Notes under the pieces: generated by a model
Told to the model about the DNA's origin: nothing
What the model saw: only the letters and a program-made list of their open reading frames with translations
The model's database searches: none
Shown here: positions 2,540-22,997 of the stretch, piece after piece
How positions within the stretch are numbered: position 1 is the first letter of the stretch
Layout of the letters: each line of letters starts with the position of its first letter
UHGV virus genome: UHGV-0097687
Origin: a virus
DNA: 26,529 nucleotides
Reading direction: 5' to 3' (one strand)
Program-made: the position numbers and the translations under genes

Positions 2540-4603
2540 ATGGCAGCAGTAAAAATCTCAGGTGTGCTGAAAGATGGTGCGGGAAAACCAATACAGAACT
2601 GCACTATTCAACTGAAGGCAAAGCGTAACAGCACCACGGTACTGGTGAACACGGTGGCCTCTGAAAATCCTGATGAAGCCGGGCGTTACAGTATGGACGT
2701 TGAGTATGGTCAGTACAGCGTCATCCTGTGGATTGAGGGTTCTCAGCCATCACATGTTGGGACCATTACCGTCTATGAAGGTTCCAGTCCGGGGACGCTG
2801 AATGATTTTCTCGGTGCCATGACGGAAGATGATGTCATGCCGGAGGCATTGCGCCGTTTTCAGGAAATGGTGGAGGATGTGGCACGCAACGCTGAAGCCG
2901 CCTCTCAGAGCGCAGCGGCAGCAAAGAAATCAGAAACAGCAGCGGCATCGTCCAGGAACGCGGCGAAAACATCAGAGACGAATGCAGGTAACAGCGCGAA
3001 AGCGGCAGCTTCTTCAAAAACAGCCGCACAAAACGCAGCAACAGCGGCAGAACGTTCAGAGACAAATGCCCGTGCGTCAGAAGAAGCCTCCGCAGACAGT
3101 GAAGAGGCTTCCCGCCGTAATGCAGAGTCAGCCGCTGAAAATGCCGGAGTCGCCACCACAAAAGCGCGGGAGGCTGCAGCAGACGCAACAAAGGCCGGGC
3201 AGAAAAAGGATGAGGCTCTGTCGGCAGCGACACGAGCTGAAAAGGCGGCAGACCGCGCAGAAGCCGCAGCGGAAGTGACTGCAGAGCCCTATGCGAATAT
3301 AGTGCCGCCGCTGCCTGATGTGTGGATACCGTTTAACGATTCACTGGATATGATTGCGGGTTTTTCTCCGGGCTATAAAAAAATAGCTATTGGTGACGAT
3401 GTGGTTCAGGTCGCCAGTGATAAACAGGTTAATTTCAGTCGCGCATCAACGGCAACATATATCAACAAATCTGGCGAACTGAAAACGGCGGAAATTAATG
3501 AGCCGCGATTTGAGTGTGATGGCCTGCTTATTGAGGGACAAAGAACGAACTACATGCTCAATTCGGAAAGTCCAGCCAGCTGGGGGAAGTCATCAAACAT
3601 GGATGTGCCCGAAACCGGGAGGGATAGTTTTGGTTTTACTTATGGAAAGTTTGTCTGCAACGATTCTCTGGTTGGGCAAACTTCGGCTATTAATATGGCA
3701 TCAATTGCTGCAACAAAGTCAGTTGATGTCTCAGGCGATAATAAATACGTGACAACCTCATGTCGCTTTAAAACAGAACTGCAGGTAAGGTTGCGAATCC
3801 GGTTTGATAAATATGACGGAAGTGCAACAACTTTTCTTGGCGATGCGTACATTGATACGCAAACGCTTGAAATTAATATGACAGGTGGTGCTGCCGGCAG
3901 AATTACGGCACGAGTCAGGAAGGATAAGACCACGGGCTGGATTTTTGCAGAGGCAACGATTCAGGCAATTGATGGTGAGTTAAAAATAGGCTCTCAGATA
4001 CAGTATTCTCCTGAGAAGGGTGGGGCAACAGTATCTGGTGACTATATTTATCTTGCCACCCCACAAGTAGAGAATGGGCCGTGTGTATCATCATTTATTA
4101 TTTCAGGAGGCAGCGCAACGACAAGAGCCAGTGATTTGGTTAGTATCCCCACCAGAAATAATCTTTATAAGTTACCATTTACTTTTTTACTTGAGATTCA
4201 TAAAAACTGGGATATTGCACCAAACGCCGCACCCCGCGTGTGGGATATAGCAGCAGCCAATACCGGGCAATCAGCAATTGCAGCAGTCAACAGAGGTAGT
4301 GGTAAGTTATATATGAGTCTGTCAAACCCTTCAGGCTCGTATGTTAATAGCGCAGCGACAGATGTATTTGCAGAGAAAACCACATTTGGATGTATTGCAA
4401 AAGCTGATGGTCACTTTCATGTGGTGACAAATGGTAAAGCGGTTAATGAAGTTTATTGTGAATATAATGGCGTGACCGCTGATAAAAATATCCGATTTGG
4501 AGGGCAGACGAATACTGGAGAACGACATCTGTTTGGCCATATTCGCAATTTCCGCATATGGCATAAAGAATTAAATGACAGGCAATTAAAAGAGGTCGTA
4601 TGA
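2540..4603 (+). CDS. stf: Side tail fiber protein (Stf-like) with conserved N-terminus, Ala/Ser-rich repeat stalk and divergent C-terminal lectin-like (LamG-type) domain
   Basis: ATG at 2540 with GGAG RBS; N-terminus MAAVKISGVLKDGAGKPIQNCTIQLKA..GRYSMDVEYGQYSV matches remembered lambda Stf; low-complexity SETNA/AAAS repeats 2880-3280; C-terminal ..NIRFGGQTNTGERHLFGHIRNFRIWHKELNDRQLKEV resembles LamG_3 terminal motif. Confidence 0.82.
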   Translation: MAAVKISGVLKDGAGKPIQNCTIQLKAKRNSTTVLVNTVASENPDEAGRYSMDVEYGQYSVILWIEGSQPSHVGTITVYEGSSPGTLNDFLGAMTEDDVMPEALRRFQEMVEDVARNAEAASQSAAAAKKSETAAASSRNAAKTSETNAGNSAKAAASSKTAAQNAATAAERSETNARASEEASADSEEASRRNAESAAENAGVATTKAREAAADATKAGQKKDEALSAATRAEKAADRAEAAAEVTAEPYANIVPPLPDVWIPFNDSLDMIAGFSPGYKKIAIGDDVVQVASDKQVNFSRASTATYINKSGELKTAEINEPRFECDGLLIEGQRTNYMLNSESPASWGKSSNMDVPETGRDSFGFTYGKFVCNDSLVGQTSAINMASIAATKSVDVSGDNKYVTTSCRFKTELQVRLRIRFDKYDGSATTFLGDAYIDTQTLEINMTGGAAGRITARVRKDKTTGWIFAEATIQAIDGELKIGSQIQYSPEKGGATVSGDYIYLATPQVENGPCVSSFIISGGSATTRASDLVSIPTRNNLYKLPFTFLLEIHKNWDIAPNAAPRVWDIAAANTGQSAIAAVNRGSGKLYMSLSNPSGSYVNSAATDVFAEKTTFGCIAKADGHFHVVTNGKAVNEVYCEYNGVTADKNIRFGGQTNTGERHLFGHIRNFRIWHKELNDRQLKEVV

Positions 4604-5849: not shown

Positions 5850-7562
5850 CTAGGCCTGGGCTTCAGTTATAGTGGCAGCTTTTTCTAGATTCGATTTGAT
5901 GACAAGTTCATTTTTGTCTGCACTTATTTCTTCAAGTTTTTTCTGAAGAACCTCAACTTGTTTTTCACTTTCGATACCTTGCTTAGCCCGAATTTCGAGT
6001 AAAGATTTTGTCCTAAGTGCATTTTCTATTACATCTTCATCCATAAAACTCATGATATCCTCAACCAGATCCGGTACAAATCCCTCCGGCTGTAAATTTT
6101 TGCTTCTCAACTCTATAACCAAGTTGGCTGCAGTCTCTTTTGACATGGCTCCACTCGCGACAGAACCTTTCATATCTTTGTATACATTAGCGACTTTTGC
6201 TGCCACCTGTGTAGAAAGAATAACTTGTGCTCTAGCAACTACATCAAAAGTCGTAGGTAATTTCACTCCATTAGCAAACCCCTTATGAGACTTAAACCAT
6301 AATCTCTCAGTTATATAGTCTAAAGTGGCTGCGAATGGTATTGTTCTTTCTCCTTGAGTAGAAAAGTAATGTGATAGGGATTTGGTTATATTTTTACCCG
6401 TGATGAGTAGGGCTCCAGTTTGCTCTAACTTTATATTGCTTCTTCCTTTTCTTTTGTAATTTATCTTTGTGAAAATTTTTAAAGTATCAGCAATTTTATC
6501 CAATTCATAATCTGGGAATTCTCTTTTTAGTTTATCAAGTGTAGAGGTGCTTTCAATATTATACTCCGGCTTATCGTAATAATCAGTGTTAGCATCAAGA
6601 GAAATTTTCATTTTTCCTAGTTTTTCAAAAAACTCTATTTTTTTTATTGTGATGTCTGATTTTGTAGAACAGCTTTGTAGTAGATTGATCATTCCAGTCT
6701 TAGATGGGTCTGGATGTTGATTACGCTCGAAAATCTTTTCTGCTGCATAAAAGTAACTTTCAACTTCGCTTTGTGTTTCTTCAAAGTACTTTAATTCTAT
6801 TTTTGATTTATTTCCTGAGCGGTCTCGTAACCCCTTGACTAATAATAGAAATTCTTCAAACATACGATAATGAATATCGCCATTTAATCCTACAGCATCA
6901 AATAATAATTCCGTATCAAGAACTATTTGAAAATCATTCCTCCATGGCTCAGCATTCACTAAGTCTGAGTTATAACAGATCCCACCGTAAAGAATTAGTC
7001 CTTCTTCAACCTTGTTTAACTTATCGGTGAACAGAGGGTCTTTTGAATTCTGAATGATGAACTGACTGATAACTACGGAGTTCTCACTCTGCTTTCTGTC
7101 ATGAATAAAATATGAATAAAAATCTGATAATAGCTCTTCAATCTGCTCTAGATTAAGTTCTTCTTTACTAAAGGACTTAACGAATTGAATGAGCAAGTTT
7201 TTTATATAGTCTTGTTCTTCCTTTACTTGCTCGTAACTTGCTTTTAGATTATTGTTTCTATCAAATTTTTCAGTAACATAATATTTGCCATTTTTAAATT
7301 CCAACAAACCTATTTTCTTGAGTCTGTTTTTTAGACATGATTTCACTACAGCTTCAGGTATATCAAATCCATAGTCAGAATTTAGTTCCTGAGAGCACTT
7401 AGTTACGTCGAACTCCCATAACTGATGTATGACTATAGTTGAACATAGGAACTGAGCTAAAACATCGTATATATCTTTCTTATTTTCATGTAATTGACGA
7501 AAAAGAGCTGCAGATGCCAATAAACGTTGATCTTCCATAATTCCTTTCTTGAGAATACTCAT
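5850..7562 (-). CDS. Hypothetical 570-aa protein, AT-rich cargo gene (candidate defence or exclusion protein, function unknown)
   Basis: Long uninterrupted ORF in roughly 33% GC DNA; GGAGGGG RBS 4 nt before ATG; C-terminal coiled-coil-like region; no Walker, nuclease or RT motif recognised by eye. Confidence 0.7.
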   Translation of the reverse strand: MSILKKGIMEDQRLLASAALFRQLHENKKDIYDVLAQFLCSTIVIHQLWEFDVTKCSQELNSDYGFDIPEAVVKSCLKNRLKKIGLLEFKNGKYYVTEKFDRNNNLKASYEQVKEEQDYIKNLLIQFVKSFSKEELNLEQIEELLSDFYSYFIHDRKQSENSVVISQFIIQNSKDPLFTDKLNKVEEGLILYGGICYNSDLVNAEPWRNDFQIVLDTELLFDAVGLNGDIHYRMFEEFLLLVKGLRDRSGNKSKIELKYFEETQSEVESYFYAAEKIFERNQHPDPSKTGMINLLQSCSTKSDITIKKIEFFEKLGKMKISLDANTDYYDKPEYNIESTSTLDKLKREFPDYELDKIADTLKIFTKINYKRKGRSNIKLEQTGALLITGKNITKSLSHYFSTQGERTIPFAATLDYITERLWFKSHKGFANGVKLPTTFDVVARAQVILSTQVAAKVANVYKDMKGSVASGAMSKETAANLVIELRSKNLQPEGFVPDLVEDIMSFMDEDVIENALRTKSLLEIRAKQGIESEKQVEVLQKKLEEISADKNELVIKSNLEKAATITEAQA

Positions 7563-7634
7563 ACAGCCCCTCCGATCACATTTTTGATGGTTTGATACAG
7601 AAGCAACGTGTACTTATTTAATATTTAACAATAA

Positions 7635-7663
7635 ATCTACAATATTATTTCAAAGTGTGTCAA
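7635..7663 (-). promoter_or_regulatory. Candidate sigma70 promoter for the 570-aa gene
   Basis: Minus strand TTGACA (7663-7658), 18-nt spacer, TAGATT; about 70 nt upstream of the start codon. Confidence 0.3.
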
Positions 7664-8300
7664 TTTTTTTTAACTATCTAAAGCTAGATTCCCTTGGTAT
7701 ACAAATATTGTACAACAAAACAAAAATTTTCAGAGTTTTATTCTTTTATTTGCCGTAGGGGCTCGGGTTTGTTCGAGGTTTCCATCTGAAGCCCTCAAAC
7801 TGATGACCGACTTCCCTTGATTAAGGATAGCGTTGCATTGACCCGTTGAACTCACAGCTCATAACAGACATTCACTACGGTTATGGCAGAAAGGTATGCA
7901 TGCTGGGGATGGGGAAGTTGTGAAAGAAAAGAAGGCTGCTGCGTCGTTTGACATCACGTCTATCTTTTTATTGGTTATGCAGGTCGTAGTGGGACAAAAC
8001 TGAGACACATAAGGCCTCACAATGGCTTGCAAGGCTTTACATGTTTTGATGTAGTGGGACGTGTGAGCGCAGTGTTGATGGGGTAATGCATTGAATTAGA
8101 AGCGAATTCTTATAATTCGTAATGCTAAGATCGTAGGGGCGTCCCCATTTTCGGTACTACCTAAATCAATGAGTTACCTAACTTTTAGTTATGACATAAA
8201 GATATATATGCTAAGTAAGATATAGAGAAGCTGGTAAAGCAATTAAAGCTGTTGCTACGTGTGTGGCGGCTGATGTATAGCCATTTATGCAGATGAAACG

Positions 8301-8326
8301 AAAAAAAGCCCACATCTGTGGGCTTT
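8301..8326 (-). terminator. Intrinsic terminator (strong on minus strand, weak on plus)
   Basis: Minus strand GCCCACA-GA-TGTGGGC followed by TTTTTTT; lies about 230 nt downstream of the methyltransferase stop. Confidence 0.65.
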
Positions 8327-8443
8327 CAAGTCACTCGGGAGCCGCGGCTCCTTTGCGTATCCTTTTTTGTCTCCTCACCGTCTGGTCGGTGTCCTGCTGA
8401 GACTGCTAACTTCCTGTTTTTCTTGGTGTTGTCCTTACACCGT

Positions 8444-8457
8444 CCAATCATGATTGG
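8444..8457. repeat. Perfect 14-bp palindrome CCAATCATGATTGG abutting the att-like core
   Basis: Read directly from sequence. Confidence 0.6.
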
Positions 8458-8482
8458 CTGGCGGGAGTTGAACCCGAGTCCG
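8457..8482 (-). other. tmRNA (ssrA) 3'-end-like segment, candidate phage attachment-site core or remnant
   Basis: Minus strand CGGACTCGGGTTCAACTCCCGCCAGC matches the T-arm/acceptor region of E. coli ssrA as remembered (..CGGACGCGGGTTCAACTCCCGCCAGCTCCACCA), 25 of 26; similarity ends before the CCA end. Confidence 0.5.
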
Positions 8483-8554
8483 TATTTTTATAATTAGCTG
8501 AAATAAAACGATTAATACTAACCATTTTATTCTGCGGATCTTTTGCGGCTCCTT

Positions 8555-9454
8555 TTATGTCTGGATGTGGTCGTCAACACATCCTCTTTTAAATACAGGC
8601 GCTTTTACCTTAGTTGGATCATCTGTTTTAAAGATTTTCAATCGTTCACTGAAGAACATTACCTCAGATCCTTTGTACCGATCTTGAGCACTGTAGTTTA
8701 TTCCATATACTAATGATGATGTCTTATACATAGCTTGGATCTCAGGAGTGTTATCGTAAGAAACAATCCAAGGTGTTTTAATATTATTCTGTACGACTTT
8801 TGCAACCCTAACATGATCATCATGATCATAATGGTTGATATATAAACCTTTACCTTTTATGTAATAAGGTGGATCCAAATATGTTAATGAGTTTTGTGGC
8901 AATTGAGTAACTATTTTTTTAATGAAATCAATTGCATCCATGTTATATAAATCTATTCTGTGACGATTTTCTGATATTTTATGGATTCGAGAAATCAAAT
9001 CACTCTTATTATAGCGAGCGTCAAGCTTCCATTTCCCTTCTTGATTTTTACCGCCAATTACTCCACCTTTTAATATTCCAGAACGATTTGTTCTATTGAG
9101 AAAAAAGGTTGAGAAACCAATTGTTAAAAGATCATGGTCTTTAGGATTATTAATTATATCTTTCTGCCTAAACCATTCATCCATTGTAACTTCTGTTCTT
9201 TCAATTAAAGAACATAATTGATCTGCATGATTTAATACACTGTGCCAAAAAGCATAAACAGAAATATTAATATCATTAAGGATGATTTTTTCAGCTGCAT
9301 TTAGATGTAACAGTTTCAATGCTAAACCAGCACCCCCAGCATATGGTTCGGCATAATGTATAGGCGAAAGATTATTTTCTTCAATAATCCGAAGCATGAA
9401 ATTTGCAAGCTTGCCTTTACCGCCAGGATAGCGAAGTGGGGTGTTAAAACGCAT
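8555..9454 (-). CDS. Dam-family (alpha-class) N6-adenine DNA methyltransferase
   Basis: N-terminal PLRYPGGKGKL and EPYAGGAG (SAM-binding motifs comparable to E. coli Dam) and catalytic YLDPPYY; AGAGG RBS; AT-rich. Confidence 0.85.
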   Translation of the reverse strand: MRFNTPLRYPGGKGKLANFMLRIIEENNLSPIHYAEPYAGGAGLALKLLHLNAAEKIILNDINISVYAFWHSVLNHADQLCSLIERTEVTMDEWFRQKDIINNPKDHDLLTIGFSTFFLNRTNRSGILKGGVIGGKNQEGKWKLDARYNKSDLISRIHKISENRHRIDLYNMDAIDFIKKIVTQLPQNSLTYLDPPYYIKGKGLYINHYDHDDHVRVAKVVQNNIKTPWIVSYDNTPEIQAMYKTSSLVYGINYSAQDRYKGSEVMFFSERLKIFKTDDPTKVKAPVFKRGCVDDHIQT

Positions 9455-9488
9455 ATGATACCTCTAAATGTCAGATCTAAAGTATATC

Positions 9489-9528
9489 AAAAAAAGGGCT
9501 TTATGGCCATCACATAAAACCCTTTTTT
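9489..9528. repeat. Long near-perfect inverted repeat (about 16-bp stem, 7-nt loop) between the ATPase and methyltransferase genes
   Basis: AAAAAAGGGCTTTATG-GCCATCA-CATAAAACCCTTTTTT; on the minus-strand RNA the single mismatch is a G-U pair. Confidence 0.6.
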
Positions 9529-9534
9529 AATCAA

Positions 9535-11268
9535 TTAGTTATCTGACAGATATGATGAGATGGTAGCAGAATCGACACCATGTCCACTTATCATAATAAC
9601 TTTAAGACTCTTTATTAGTTCATTCTTGAAGCTATCCGATTGAACAGGATTTTTCTCGACCCAATATCGATATGGGTTATCTTTAACTCTTCCTTTGACT
9701 TGGGCCTGAAATTGAGTCGTATGTGCAAAATCTTTAAACAGTTTTCTAACTCTCCCTCCATGGTTTTTGTTAACTTTTTTATAATTATCTATAAGGATTT
9801 TTAAATCAATCGGAGCGTTACCAATCTTTAGCGTTGCAATTATGTCTTTAGCTGTTTTCATAAAAACAGCTTTTGTAAATTTATTTTTATTTTCCCAATA
9901 TGCATCATCAGGTGGTAAATTATATAAAAACTCAAAAATCATTTGGTCTGGAGGTAAGGTGCTTGGAAGCAAACATAAGTTTTTTTCTTTTTTGGCTTTT
10001 TTTGCATTAGCACTGTTGTCGTGAACAACATCACCGTCTAAGACGATCAAGCTTTTAGCTGTAAATTCTGGTATTTTTCTTGCCATTAAGTCAAGCATGG
10101 CAGAGCAGCTAATATTTATATTTCCTAATGGATTTAATATTTTATTTATTTTTCGATCTGTTATCAATTGTTTGAAAAAGTCGAAACCTTCTTTGTCTTC
10201 AAAATATACATTTGCCTTTGGAAGACAAATGTCATCATTAATTTTTACAGTTTCAACATGTAAATCAGCGTGGATATCTGTCCATGAAAGATTATTCTTT
10301 GTTTTAATATCTCCATATGTGTCTGTAAGATATATTGTTTTAAAGCTATCACTATCTTGTTTTGAACGATTATAGATATCCTCTATTATTAATGGAGAGT
10401 GCGAGGTCATGATTATTTGCAGATCGTATTGTTTTGCTGCTTTAGTTAGAATATTAATTAGCTCTAACTGTGCCGCAGGGAAAAGACCTGCATCGGCTTC
10501 ATCAATTAACAATATTCCGCCATGATAATCAGAATAAGTTTCCTTCAATCTTTTAAATGAAAAAATTGCCTGGATTAATTGTCCAACATTATCTTCACCA
10601 ACAGATACTGATTGGTGATCATAATTGTCACCATGGACAACCATTGAATCGATAGTACCTTTTGTTGCTGTTACTGAGCTTCCATTGTTTTTTAGTAAGA
10701 GTTGGTTACTCATCATTCTGATTTCATCAGAATTTTCATTGATGTACTGAACATCCCGTGTTGAGTAATCAGTCCTTAATGTAATAGGAAGAAGTCGTGC
10801 TAAGCTTAAAAAAATAACAGGATGAGTAACGTTTCTACTTTGGTTTTTTTCCGGTATTGAATCATTTCCCCTGACTACAGGCCTAGATTTATCTCTGTCA
10901 CTGTAGCTGTATAAACCTAATGTTAGTTTTTCAAGATGTTTGTTCGATGCACCATCATAGACACTAATTTTGACGTCCATTGAACCAGGAACATCAAATT
11001 GTTCTGAAAGCCTAAAATGTTCGCTGAAAGCTGACTTGAAGCTGCCATTTGTTAATGTTTTATATTGTGTTAAATCAGTCTCAGGGTTTTTGGTAAAGTC
11101 CTTTGTAAAGCTAAATATTTGGGCGATAATGCCAAGAATTGTGGATTTAGATGTGCCATTTTTACCACAAATAACAGTTAGGCGAGAACCAAACTCGATG
11201 TTTATATTTTTCAGTCCGCGAAACTTCACAACATTTATATTTTTTAGTTTGGTAATTTGATTTGCCAT
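9535..11268 (-). CDS. OLD-family ATP-dependent nuclease-like protein (N-terminal ABC-type ATPase, C-terminal Toprim-like domain)
   Basis: Start set at MANQITKLKNINVVKFRGL..; Walker A GKNGTSKST, Walker B/D-loop ILLIDEADAGL, H-loop MTSHSP; C-terminal ..FEDKEGFD.. and ..LIVLDGD.. resemble Toprim E and DxD motifs; 577 aa, similar in size to P2 Old and GajA. Confidence 0.72.
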   Translation of the reverse strand: MANQITKLKNINVVKFRGLKNINIEFGSRLTVICGKNGTSKSTILGIIAQIFSFTKDFTKNPETDLTQYKTLTNGSFKSAFSEHFRLSEQFDVPGSMDVKISVYDGASNKHLEKLTLGLYSYSDRDKSRPVVRGNDSIPEKNQSRNVTHPVIFLSLARLLPITLRTDYSTRDVQYINENSDEIRMMSNQLLLKNNGSSVTATKGTIDSMVVHGDNYDHQSVSVGEDNVGQLIQAIFSFKRLKETYSDYHGGILLIDEADAGLFPAAQLELINILTKAAKQYDLQIIMTSHSPLIIEDIYNRSKQDSDSFKTIYLTDTYGDIKTKNNLSWTDIHADLHVETVKINDDICLPKANVYFEDKEGFDFFKQLITDRKINKILNPLGNINISCSAMLDLMARKIPEFTAKSLIVLDGDVVHDNSANAKKAKKEKNLCLLPSTLPPDQMIFEFLYNLPPDDAYWENKNKFTKAVFMKTAKDIIATLKIGNAPIDLKILIDNYKKVNKNHGGRVRKLFKDFAHTTQFQAQVKGRVKDNPYRYWVEKNPVQSDSFKNELIKSLKVIMISGHGVDSATISSYLSDN

Positions 11269-11290
11269 GTTTCTATCTTGCTCCGTAAAA

Positions 11291-11309
11291 TGGCCACAAA
11301 TTGTGGCCA
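11291..11309. promoter_or_regulatory. Perfect palindrome TGGCCACAA-A-TTGTGGCCA between int stop and ATPase start (int terminator or operator)
   Basis: 9-bp perfect arms; on minus strand followed by ATTTTAC. Confidence 0.35.
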
Positions 11310-11326
11310 ATAGTTTCATGCTTGGA

Positions 11327-12493
11327 TTATATTGTTATCTTCTTCAAGCTTGTTTGTCCATCATATTCCTTCAGATATGAGCCATAGTGCCTGAAAAGCA
11401 TCTCCGGCCCTTTATGCCCCATTTGAGCTGCAAGCCAAAACAGGTTTGCTCCCCGGCTGATATGGCGGGTGGCGAATGTATGCCTGGTTTGATATGGATT
11501 TCTGTAACGAATACCTGCTTTTCGCAATGTTGGCACCCATGCTTTTTTCCTGATTGCATCAGCACTTGCCCAGGGCTTATTGGTCTTTGGATCTTCAAAG
11601 ACAGTAGCATCCTTCATGAATGTAAATGGCTTCTGATTTATCAGCGCCAACATTGCATCTTCTGTCAGTTCAACTTTACGAGTACCGGCTTTTGTCTTTG
11701 TTCCTTTGATAACACCGACAACACTTGCGCTCTGGACATGGGCAGTTTTTCCAACAAAGTCGATATCACGCCATCGAAGGGCACATAATTCAGAACTACG
11801 CAGGCCTGTATGTATAGCGAACCGGAACAGATTCTCCCATTGTTTGTTTCCGGCTGCTGTTAGTAATGCATCAACTTCTGCTGGTGATAGCGGATCAACC
11901 ACGTAGCTGCTTTCTGCTTCTGACTTATCACTTTGGTAGCGCGAAGCAGTTACCAACGATACGGGGTTAATTTGAAGTACCCCATCGGTTACGGCTTCAT
12001 CAAGTGCTGACCGCAGGAAAGATAACTGGTTGCGAATTGTTTTTAAGGTCGTTTTCTGGCTTTGAATCCACGCTTTCAGGATTGCTGGTGTTAATTCACT
12101 TGCAGGGCAAATGTGGAGTGAGGCTAACGCACTACGGCATTTTTTATAACCACCAATCGTAGAGGGTGAAAGTTTTCTCGTTTCGCAGATTTCAAGGTAT
12201 TCGTCCAGGTACATTTTTACCGTTTTGCCTGCAGCAGCATTACCAAAAATTTTCAAACGAGCAGAACGGGGAAAATATTCCGCATAAATGAATGTTCCCC
12301 TTTCGATCTTATTATGAATTTCGCCGAGTGTGCGCTCGGCGTATTTAATGTTCTTTGGTGTTACTTCCAGATTGGAAAGAGGCTCACGACATTTAACTCC
12401 TTTGTAGGTGAAAGTTATATTGATCGTTTCGCCCTGGCGGTGTTTCCTGATTGTTACGCCGCGCGGTAGTTTGAGCAGTTTTGTCTGGCCCAT
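11327..12493 (-). CDS. int: Tyrosine recombinase (phage integrase) with N-terminal arm-binding domain
   Basis: 388 aa; C-terminal catalytic motifs ..HTGLRSSEL.. and ..RHTFATRHISRGANLFWLAAQMGHKGPEMLFRHYGSYL (R..H..R..Y); start overlaps xis. Confidence 0.9.
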   Translation of the reverse strand: MGQTKLLKLPRGVTIRKHRQGETINITFTYKGVKCREPLSNLEVTPKNIKYAERTLGEIHNKIERGTFIYAEYFPRSARLKIFGNAAAGKTVKMYLDEYLEICETRKLSPSTIGGYKKCRSALASLHICPASELTPAILKAWIQSQKTTLKTIRNQLSFLRSALDEAVTDGVLQINPVSLVTASRYQSDKSEAESSYVVDPLSPAEVDALLTAAGNKQWENLFRFAIHTGLRSSELCALRWRDIDFVGKTAHVQSASVVGVIKGTKTKAGTRKVELTEDAMLALINQKPFTFMKDATVFEDPKTNKPWASADAIRKKAWVPTLRKAGIRYRNPYQTRHTFATRHISRGANLFWLAAQMGHKGPEMLFRHYGSYLKEYDGQTSLKKITI

Positions 12494-12672
12494 TTTGCAA
12501 CCTCACTAAGATCAATCCACCTCTCCTTAACGCCTTCAACCTTTAAAACCTGAACACCTTCACGCCAAACACCGCGCTGTACACGTTTGTTTATTGCTTC
12601 AGGAGTTTCGCCAGTTTCTTTGCAATAAGTTGAGATTGGAACGCAATCGAGGTTCAGCATATGTTTCTCCAC
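12454..12672 (-). CDS. xis: Excisionase-like DNA-binding protein
   Basis: 72 aa, directly upstream of and overlapping int; basic/aromatic small protein typical of Xis. Confidence 0.65.
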   Translation of the reverse strand: MEKHMLNLDCVPISTYCKETGETPEAINKRVQRGVWREGVQVLKVEGVKERWIDLSEVAKWARQNCSNYRAA

Positions 12673-22899: not shown

Positions 22900-22997
22900 G
22901 TACCTGTAAACTTGGTGCAGTACAGTAAACACGCTGGTGGTCGTGAATACTGACCTTTTATCTTGCTGGCTTTTTAGACAAGAGTTATTGGTATGTC

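Follow-up and report, generated by a model that had tools for sequence, protein, structure and literature searches.

What is an incomplete copy of the end of a tmRNA gene doing inside a phage-like genome, nearly 3 kb from the integrase gene, and why does it break off just before the CCA end? The locus lies in the virus genome UHGV-0097687, a sequence of 26,529 nt that was analyzed as a whole (hereafter, the window). ssrA is among the busiest integration sites in enterobacteria; elements that use it normally supply a working tmRNA 3' end, and the displaced end of the host gene often decays. The first-pass annotation left two possibilities: an attP core that inserted cargo had separated from int, or a decayed att remnant from an older or tandem integration. 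The best explanation of the locus as a whole, and a reasonably probable one, is that it represents the ssrA attP of a lambdoid coliphage, with a cargo slot beside it and a defective allele of the ssrA end, a 5-bp deletion designated D5, on the phage side.

The ssrA-like 26-mer, CGGACTCGGGTTCAACTCCCGCCAGC, runs on the minus strand from position 8482 to 8457 and agrees with nt 331–356 of E. coli ssrA at 25 of 26 bases (reference: the annotated 363-nt gene of E. coli JJ1886, which ends in ...CGGACGCGGGTTCAACTCCCGCCAGCTCCACCA). The E. coli 26-mer matched the window at this single place, with one mismatch, and was absent from 100 dinucleotide-preserving shuffles of the window (0 matches expected by chance). 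The resemblance to the T-arm/acceptor part of ssrA is thereby confirmed by alignment and lies well above chance level. Identity is perfect over 20 bp, CGGGTTCAACTCCCGCCAGC (8457–8476), and its 5' boundary is the same in the window, in phages phiNP and LLS, and in two related loci (L008 and L009), the block beginning at the T loop in each case. A reading as a tmRNA gene was rejected: ARAGORN detected neither tRNA nor tmRNA in the window, an Rfam scan of positions 7500–9500 returned only sub-threshold matches (RF00023 tmRNA, 15 nt, 12.9 bits against a gathering score of 47), and there is no complete tRNA-like domain (5' and 3' halves, tag frame). The features of the locus and of the adjacent genes are collected in Table 1.

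Table 1. Features of the putative ssrA attachment site and neighboring genes in the window.
Feature	Position	Strand	Description
P' arm, phage-supplied ssrA 3' trailer	8296..8456	-	Hairpins, arm-type repeat pair, palindrome, terminator
Intrinsic terminator in P' arm	8327->8304 plus T run	-	
P' arm-type repeats	8344-8372	+	Tandem pair AAAGGATACGC AAAGGAGCCGC
14-bp palindrome CCAATCATGATTGG	8444..8457	strandless	Overlaps ssrA match by one base
D5, 5-bp deletion	8456..8458	-	CTCCA or TCCAC missing (ssrA 356-360 or 357-361), by alignment with MS21324 attL and attR
attP core	8457..8482	-	Copy of ssrA nt 331-356: T arm and start of acceptor 3' strand
T-loop equivalent TTCAACT	8466-8472		Probable strand-exchange region
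P arm	8483..8562	-	Begins directly at the stop codon of the upstream gene
P-arm arm-type repeats	8534-8562	+	Tandem pair AAAGGAGCCGC AAAAGATCCGC
Cargo gene 1, D12-class N6-adenine DNA methyltransferase	8555..9454	-	Pfam PF02086, 1.8e-19; PADLOC PD-Lambda-5_B, 2e-124, full length
Cargo gene 2, ABC/AAA_15-type ATPase	9535..11319	-	PtuA-, GajA-, AriA-like
Tyrosine integrase, 388 aa	11327..12493	-	N-terminal arm-binding domain PF12167 and PF00589 (Pfam)
Excisionase	12454..12672	-	PHROG 2917 (excisionase), 1.6e-45

The core is flanked by a direct repeat, D1, of 29 nt (83% identity) with one copy in each arm, and each copy consists of two 11-bp units of the AAAGGAGCCGC type. Such pairs are also present in phiNP and in the related loci L005, L008, L009 and L033, and in a diverged form in LLS, and the D1 copies are regarded as putative arm-type sites for the integrase (Int). 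With these arms, window 8296–8562 has the make-up of a complete attP of a lambdoid coliphage, with the minus-strand 26-mer as its core. The P' arm is identical to that found at attL of the ssrA prophage in E. coli MS21324 and at a metagenomic attL (L041).

As first reported, the core adjoins the 14-bp palindrome, the two overlapping by one base at 8457. In intact copies the first CCA of the palindrome is the CCA end of the tmRNA. The motif is conserved in E. coli trailers and LLS, altered in the attR of ST131, and absent from phiNP and from P' arms of the L029 type. As a statistical anomaly it was rejected, since about 1.6–1.9 perfect 14-bp palindromes are expected per 26.5 kb and three were found. 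Another of this length, GGAGCCGCGGCTCC, occurs at 8338–8351 and overlaps an arm-type repeat; the ST131 (JJ1886) attR carries a doubly compensated form of it, GGAGTCGCGACTCC, in which the symmetry is kept (L003, 8025–8045).

A trailer of about 150 nt, with hairpins, arm-type repeats and a terminator, is common to the P' arms of these phages and to the chromosomal side of attR (compared at window 8296–8456, L024 22973–23140, and in L003, L002 and L010). RNAalifold applied to seven trailer sequences gave hairpins with a few compensatory changes and a covariation term near zero, which was too weak for a claim of structured RNA, and that claim was dropped. In about 2,340 of 5,426 complete E. coli genomes the ssrA match reaches into the palindrome and the start of this trailer, so ‘empty’ ssrA sites may already hold a P' arm left by a phage of this family in the distant past. 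In lysogens, the phage P' arm (8296–8456) replaces the host's own ssrA 3' end, trailer and terminator, and the displaced host end comes to lie at attR, beside the methylase gene. A P' arm that supplies the ssrA 3' end is seen directly at attL of JJ1886, MS21324 and L041.

Lysogens carrying the same integrase indicate how the site is used. The Int of the window is 100% identical to those of the ssrA prophages of JJ1886 and MS21324, 93% identical to that of phiNP and 87% to that of LLS, and is specific for ssrA. For phiNP, the attP/attB core GGTTCAACTCCCGCCAGCTCCACCA was mapped by sequencing lysogens of K-12, in which integration into the ssrA 3' end rebuilds the gene (PMC6456863); the LLS attP was deduced from a prophage in ssrA and is annotated as a ‘tmRNA pseudogene’ (PQ299149; PMC12315714). 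JJ1886 and MS21324 share the order smpB-ssrA-attL-[b region, tail, head, lysis, early genes, xis, int, ATPase, methylase]-attR-glaH. The window aligns to the two ends of the MS21324 prophage with 99.8% and 99.7% identity, the two alignments meet at the core, and attL and attR of JJ1886, MS21324 and A2 show the same pattern, with matches to the window arms that change over at the core. Mapped junctions for this integrase could have fallen elsewhere, but they coincide exactly with the 8457–8482 core. Since the integrases are identical and the alignments to both MS21324 ends meet at the core, the window would represent the excised (P-O-P') form of an MS21324/JJ1886-type phage.

The distance between int and the core, put at about 3 kb in the first-pass annotation, measures 2.8 kb and is occupied by the two cargo genes, as described there. 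It is explained by a variable cargo slot between int and the P arm, which was compared across window 8555–11319 (minus strand) and the loci L012, L005, L008, L009, L001 and L033. In L033 the slot is empty: the stop codon of int, about 85 bp from the core, runs directly into the first arm repeat, and the methylase gene of the window ends at the same ACATAAAAGGAGCCGC junction as the L033 int gene. A methylase and ATPase pair lies between att and int in the window and phiNP alike. Elsewhere the slot is filled by a DUF4760 protein (L005), by a HATPase_c_2 and STAS-like DUF4325 pair (L008), or by uncharacterized proteins (L009 and LLS). In all of these, L033 included, Int is at least 87% identical. 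The proposal that cargo had displaced the attP core from int is supported by this variation, by the paired arm repeats on either side of the core, and by the lysogen junctions. The methylase and ABC-type ATPase are a candidate defense pair, and contigs encoding the methylase that were looked up showed chromosomal attR contexts only. On the other side of the locus, in the b region beside the P' arm, is an ORF of 570 aa (5850–7562, minus strand) for which Pfam, PHROGs and PADLOC gave no match. Exact copies of the protein are rare in the gene index, and the matches listed (at least five contigs) include the contig of the window, L041 with a normal attL, and a Logan lysogen contig (L042).

Where the strands exchange determines what a lesion near the core means. 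At 13 tandem-array junctions in IMG/VR the same P arm is followed by unrelated downstream arms, such as the arm of a CP4-57-like element, and these have nothing in common beyond ...CCAGCTCCACCA(A), i.e., TCCACCA(A). Similarly, the identity between phiNP and the K-12 attB is limited to 25 bp ending at CCA. Because the 13 junctions stop at TCCACCA(A) and phiNP shares only those 25 bp with K-12, exchange takes place inside CGGGTTCAACTCCCGCCAGCTCCACCA, in neither the palindrome nor the trailer. The palindrome was for this reason rejected as the crossover site; phiNP, moreover, does without it. In six divergent phages, ssrA identity begins sharply at GGTTCAAC while the preceding 10 bp vary, and five different P arms, from elements with Int at least 92% identical, adjoin a D5 partner. 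From this sharp start and the five D5 partners, we consider it very probable that exchange occurs at the T loop, 5' of the D5 deletion.

In place of the intact form CCAGCTCCACCAATCATGATTGG, found in LLS, phiNP and attL/attR of related E. coli prophages, the window has CCAGCCAATCATGATTGG. After the 26-mer it runs on as CAATCATGATTGG, whereas JJ1886 ssrA ends in TCCACCA. LLS, phiNP, L041 and both attL and attR of JJ1886 and A2 carry CCAGCTCCACCA, from which the window lacks CTCCA, and all relatives examined have an intact TCCACCA in the P' position. With D5, the gene end loses U357, one member of the G3-U357 identity pair, along with the greater part of the acceptor 3' strand, and a simulated attL, in which host ssrA up to the T loop was joined to the P' arm of the window, was not recognized as a tmRNA by ARAGORN. 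The match thus breaks before the CCA and could not rebuild a functional tmRNA 3' end, as first proposed. The break stems from a 5-bp deletion and not from general divergence, and the core is otherwise standard.

D5 itself has been described. In Table 1 of PMC10107115 (after Williams 2003), the form CGCCAGC-----CA is given for displaced fragments in E. coli RS218 (Eco48X) and EDL933 (OI-108) and in S. Typhimurium LT2 (Stm27X). Lesions of this kind at the ssrA 3' end, D5 among them, were tested and reported to inactivate trans-translation, as does dT357, which results from CP4-57 excision (PMC10107115). The deletions of 1, 4 and 5 nt in displaced ssrA ends of many genera all start directly after CAGC (PMC10107115, Table 1; L024, K-12, 22960–22990), and in K-12 this point coincides with the right-hand limit of the 8-bp block CCGCCAGC that attL and attR of CP4-57 have in common. 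Such deletions could be scars of cleavage by P4-type integrases, or could reflect selection for lesions that spare the overlap.

Of the 5,426 complete E. coli genomes, 149 contain a single exact copy of the D5 38-mer, which in 148 of them lies at attR. The exception, the natural isolate WB61 (NZ_CP020025; L010, 5665–6040), is the only one of these genomes with D5 in a full-length ssrA; this gene is the only ssrA of the strain and stands at an island-free site (smpB-ssrA-ypjA). WB61 is predicted to be tmRNA-null, as would be expected after curing of a lineage with D5 at attR. All 14 further loci with D5, five from IMG/VR and nine from metagenomes, are of the attR type. The locus L022 (ERZ1106981 NODE_793, 3756–3946) has a phiNP-like P arm, D5 and a diverged trailer followed directly by a tRNA 3' fragment, GGTCGGAGGTTCAAATCCTCTCGTGCCGACCA, and resembles a stack of att remnants from two distinct integration sites. 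The window shares one trait of displaced fragments, the lesion in the acceptor 3' strand after CAGC, but lacks the other, a chromosomal flank. What follows D5 is the P' arm and b region, as on the attL side of MS21324 and L041 and unlike the glaH/ypjA flanks. A second copy of D5 in attP form was found neither in IMG/VR (scanned with a D5 31-mer, a P-arm pattern and P'-arm patterns) nor in metagenome contigs, GTDB species representatives (0 hits) or 50,697 phage records (no match). An ssrA with D5 followed by a P' arm of the window type was likewise absent from the 5,426 E. coli genomes; the absence of such lysogens fits counter-selection or rarity.

How, then, did D5 reach the phage side? Its presence there is anomalous because a core crossover 5' of D5 would give an intact attP. 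In MS21324, the closest lysogen, attL is intact and attR carries D5, and canonical Int-mediated excision would be expected to yield an intact attP, so that an additional, rare event is needed. The window is of the attR type up to and including D5, and of the attL type from the next SNP, 28 bp further on. The difficulty recurs at population level, where D5 is associated with four or more trailer haplotypes and five or more P arms. A D5 host such as E. coli MS21324 may have been the source of the allele, its attR being copied through recombination in the 27-bp segment CCAATCATGATTGGACGGTGTAAGGAC or other trailer homology, which would amount to excision independent of Int or to gene conversion; as an alternative route, D5 may have arisen again de novo. 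The origin of the allele is therefore one of three: recombination within CCAATCATGATTGGACGGTGTAAGGAC, independent recurrence, or a junction that is not a simple attP. A slippage hot spot was judged an unlikely source, as only 1 nt of microhomology flanks the deletion. Most likely, the D5 allele in the attP is real and was acquired by recombination in the shared trailer.

The window is the whole of metagenome contig NODE_1104 (ENA assembly ERZ824673), with a k-mer coverage of 4.33. Its ends lie inside tail gene J and inside a KilA-N gene after Rz, both of which are shared among lambdoid phages, and are probably breaks at repeats and not genome ends. We think it likely that the contig derives from a real excised phage molecule.

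It could also be the internal junction of a chromosomal tandem array at ssrA, in which the P arm belongs to an upstream prophage and the P' arm to a similar downstream one. An ssrA fragment between two prophages would be under no selection and could have a decayed 3' end, and defective ends (D5 and dT357) are otherwise seen only at unselected positions. The phage occurs in tandem arrays at the 13 IMG/VR loci, and L039 is an array of this kind, in which a dead 3' end precedes a prophage like that of the window: a dT357 fragment, trailer and P' arm of the window type lie behind a different P arm. In this locus (IMGVR_UViG_2541047884_000011) the dT357-type fragment (CCAGC-CCACCA) lies about 250 bp upstream of the P'-arm match at 10806–10837 on the minus strand, and the order is different P arm, dT357 fragment, palindrome, trailer and window-type P' arm. 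We nevertheless regard an array as unlikely, given that the two sides of the junction in the window are 99.7–99.8% identical to the two ends of one prophage, and that the junction was found in none of the 5,426 complete E. coli genomes, where no place covers 80% or more of positions 7600–9500. Two near-identical copies would also be expected to split a short-read graph where P ends and where P' begins, but the contig continues without a break, and the internal site of a dilysogen made by Int would start out intact, so that D5 would still have to be transferred within the 27 bp. For the suggestion that the locus is a decayed remnant of an older or tandem integration, the outcome is divided: the locus as a whole does not fit, both arms being intact at 99.7–99.8% identity, while the lesion is indeed the allele that marks decayed attR fragments.

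A further alternative is a chimeric assembly, the real attP then being intact and the linkage of P arm, D5 and CCAATCATGATTGGACGGTGTAAGGACAACACC an artifact that joined part of an attR (P arm, core and D5) to part of an attL (trailer and P' arm). The low k-mer coverage of the source contig (4.33), the switch from attR type to attL type inside a 27-bp exact repeat, and the lack of another attP-form D5 sequence in the collections searched are all compatible with this. We consider it quite improbable, however, since the exact repeats between attL and attR are of 52, 27, 20 and 15 bp, all shorter than k = 55 (assumed from the SPAdes-style contig name, as the default final k of metaSPAdes), and in a plain lysogen, or a lysogen together with wild-type phage, would provide neither a shared vertex nor a 55-mer of the form D5–27 bp–A. 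The L042 lysogen contig, produced by another assembler, broke inside the 52-bp repeat without such a join, and independent collapse of bubbles should have left mixed SNPs, whereas all trailer SNPs of the window are of the attL type.

It is very unlikely that the Int crossover instead lies within the palindrome or past it, immediately 3' of ssrA, leaving the ssrA piece as a harmless P-side relic in which D5 is irrelevant to tmRNA. The window could then be the direct attP precursor of attL and attR in MS21324, no further event being required, and the association of D5 with several trailer haplotypes, as if recombination just 3' of D5 were frequent, would fit as well, but this reading is contradicted by the 13 same-P-arm junctions ending at TCCACCA(A), by phiNP (Int 93%), which has no palindrome and a mapped K-12 attB identity of 25 bp up to CCA, and by the occurrence of D5 beside at least five P arms and in the ssrA of WB61, where it behaves as an allele of the chromosome side.

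If the preferred reading, a real attP with D5 acquired in the trailer, is correct, a phage of this kind that integrated into a wild-type host would produce a lysogen in which ssrA carries D5 and trans-translation is lost. The attL expected of it is ssrA-D5 followed by ...GGACAACACCAAGAAAAACAGG...CGTTTCATCTGCATAAATGG. Lysogeny would then disable trans-translation and make the cell rely on ArfA rescue, a mirror-image counterpart to the excision switches of CP4-57 and CP4So. Whether a temperate phage with a dead D5 attP circulates as such, or a prophage escaped from a D5 host independently of Int through the 27-bp palindrome-bearing segment, we put either forward only tentatively and as rather doubtful; in both cases a defective allele would be moving between chromosome and phage, and its travel between attR sites and phages would help to explain why the same lesion appears on many backgrounds. 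The locus also provides a fully resolved example of an ssrA attP, in which the core, both arms and the terminator can be seen along with an exchangeable cargo slot that holds the candidate defense pair. For annotation, tmRNA-like fragments in phages mark attP whether or not int is adjacent.

In phage lambda, the attP core lies between P and P' arms with arm-type sites that are bound by the N-terminal domain of the tyrosine integrase, and xis is beside int. The window appears to share this plan (core, P and P' arms, putative arm sites, and xis adjacent to int), but differs from lambda in having an RNA gene as its target, a P' arm that is also a gene end with a terminator, and an int gene separated from attP by 3 kb of cargo. 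Closer still is the Citrobacter rodentium phage phiNP (Int 93%), with the same order of att, methylase, AAA ATPase, int and xis, the same core GGTTCAACTCCCGCCAGC, arm-type repeats in pairs on either side of it, and a structured trailer and terminator homologous to those of the window. Unlike the window, phiNP has no CCAATCATGATTGG palindrome, and its full 25-bp core extends to the end of TCCACCA, so that ssrA is rebuilt; CTCCA is missing from the window. Escherichia phage LLS (Int 87%) resembles the window in core, palindrome, trailer and arm repeats, but its identity with the ssrA 3' end spans 29 bp and takes in the CCA, and it has only one, unrelated gene between att and int where the window has two. 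The site is of the phiNP/LLS type, and neither this sort of element, nor its integrase family, nor the lesion is new; what is new is that the lesion lies on the phage side, as seen in a single low-coverage contig.

The displaced fragments of RS218, EDL933 and LT2 have the same 5-bp lesion as the window, and it is followed by the same palindrome and trailer. They then pass into a chromosomal flank on the glaH or ypjA side, whereas the copy in the window is followed by its own P' arm and b region, which places D5 on the side that joins the expressed gene. In K-12, dT357 is found at the attR of CP4-57, and the displaced ssrA end at psaA is likewise given with dT357 in Table 1 of PMC10107115 (after Williams 2003). 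In CP4-57 of K-12 and CP4So of Shewanella, the element residing in ssrA provides the functional 3' end, with a dead copy on its opposite side. In this ‘phage regulatory switch’ it is site-specific recombination that decides whether the tmRNA works, and excision kills the tmRNA (PMC10107115, PMC5148205), the loss of trans-translation with the element being documented for CP4-57 in K-12 (PMC10107115). These elements use a P4-type integrase unrelated to the family in the window (LLS Int is 17% identical to IntA), and a comparison of attL and attR in K-12 suggests that CP4-57 crosses over in the shared 8-bp CCGCCAGC block. The phage in the window would thus represent the same kind of switch with its polarity reversed: for CP4-57 and CP4So it is excision that kills the tmRNA, while here it would be integration.
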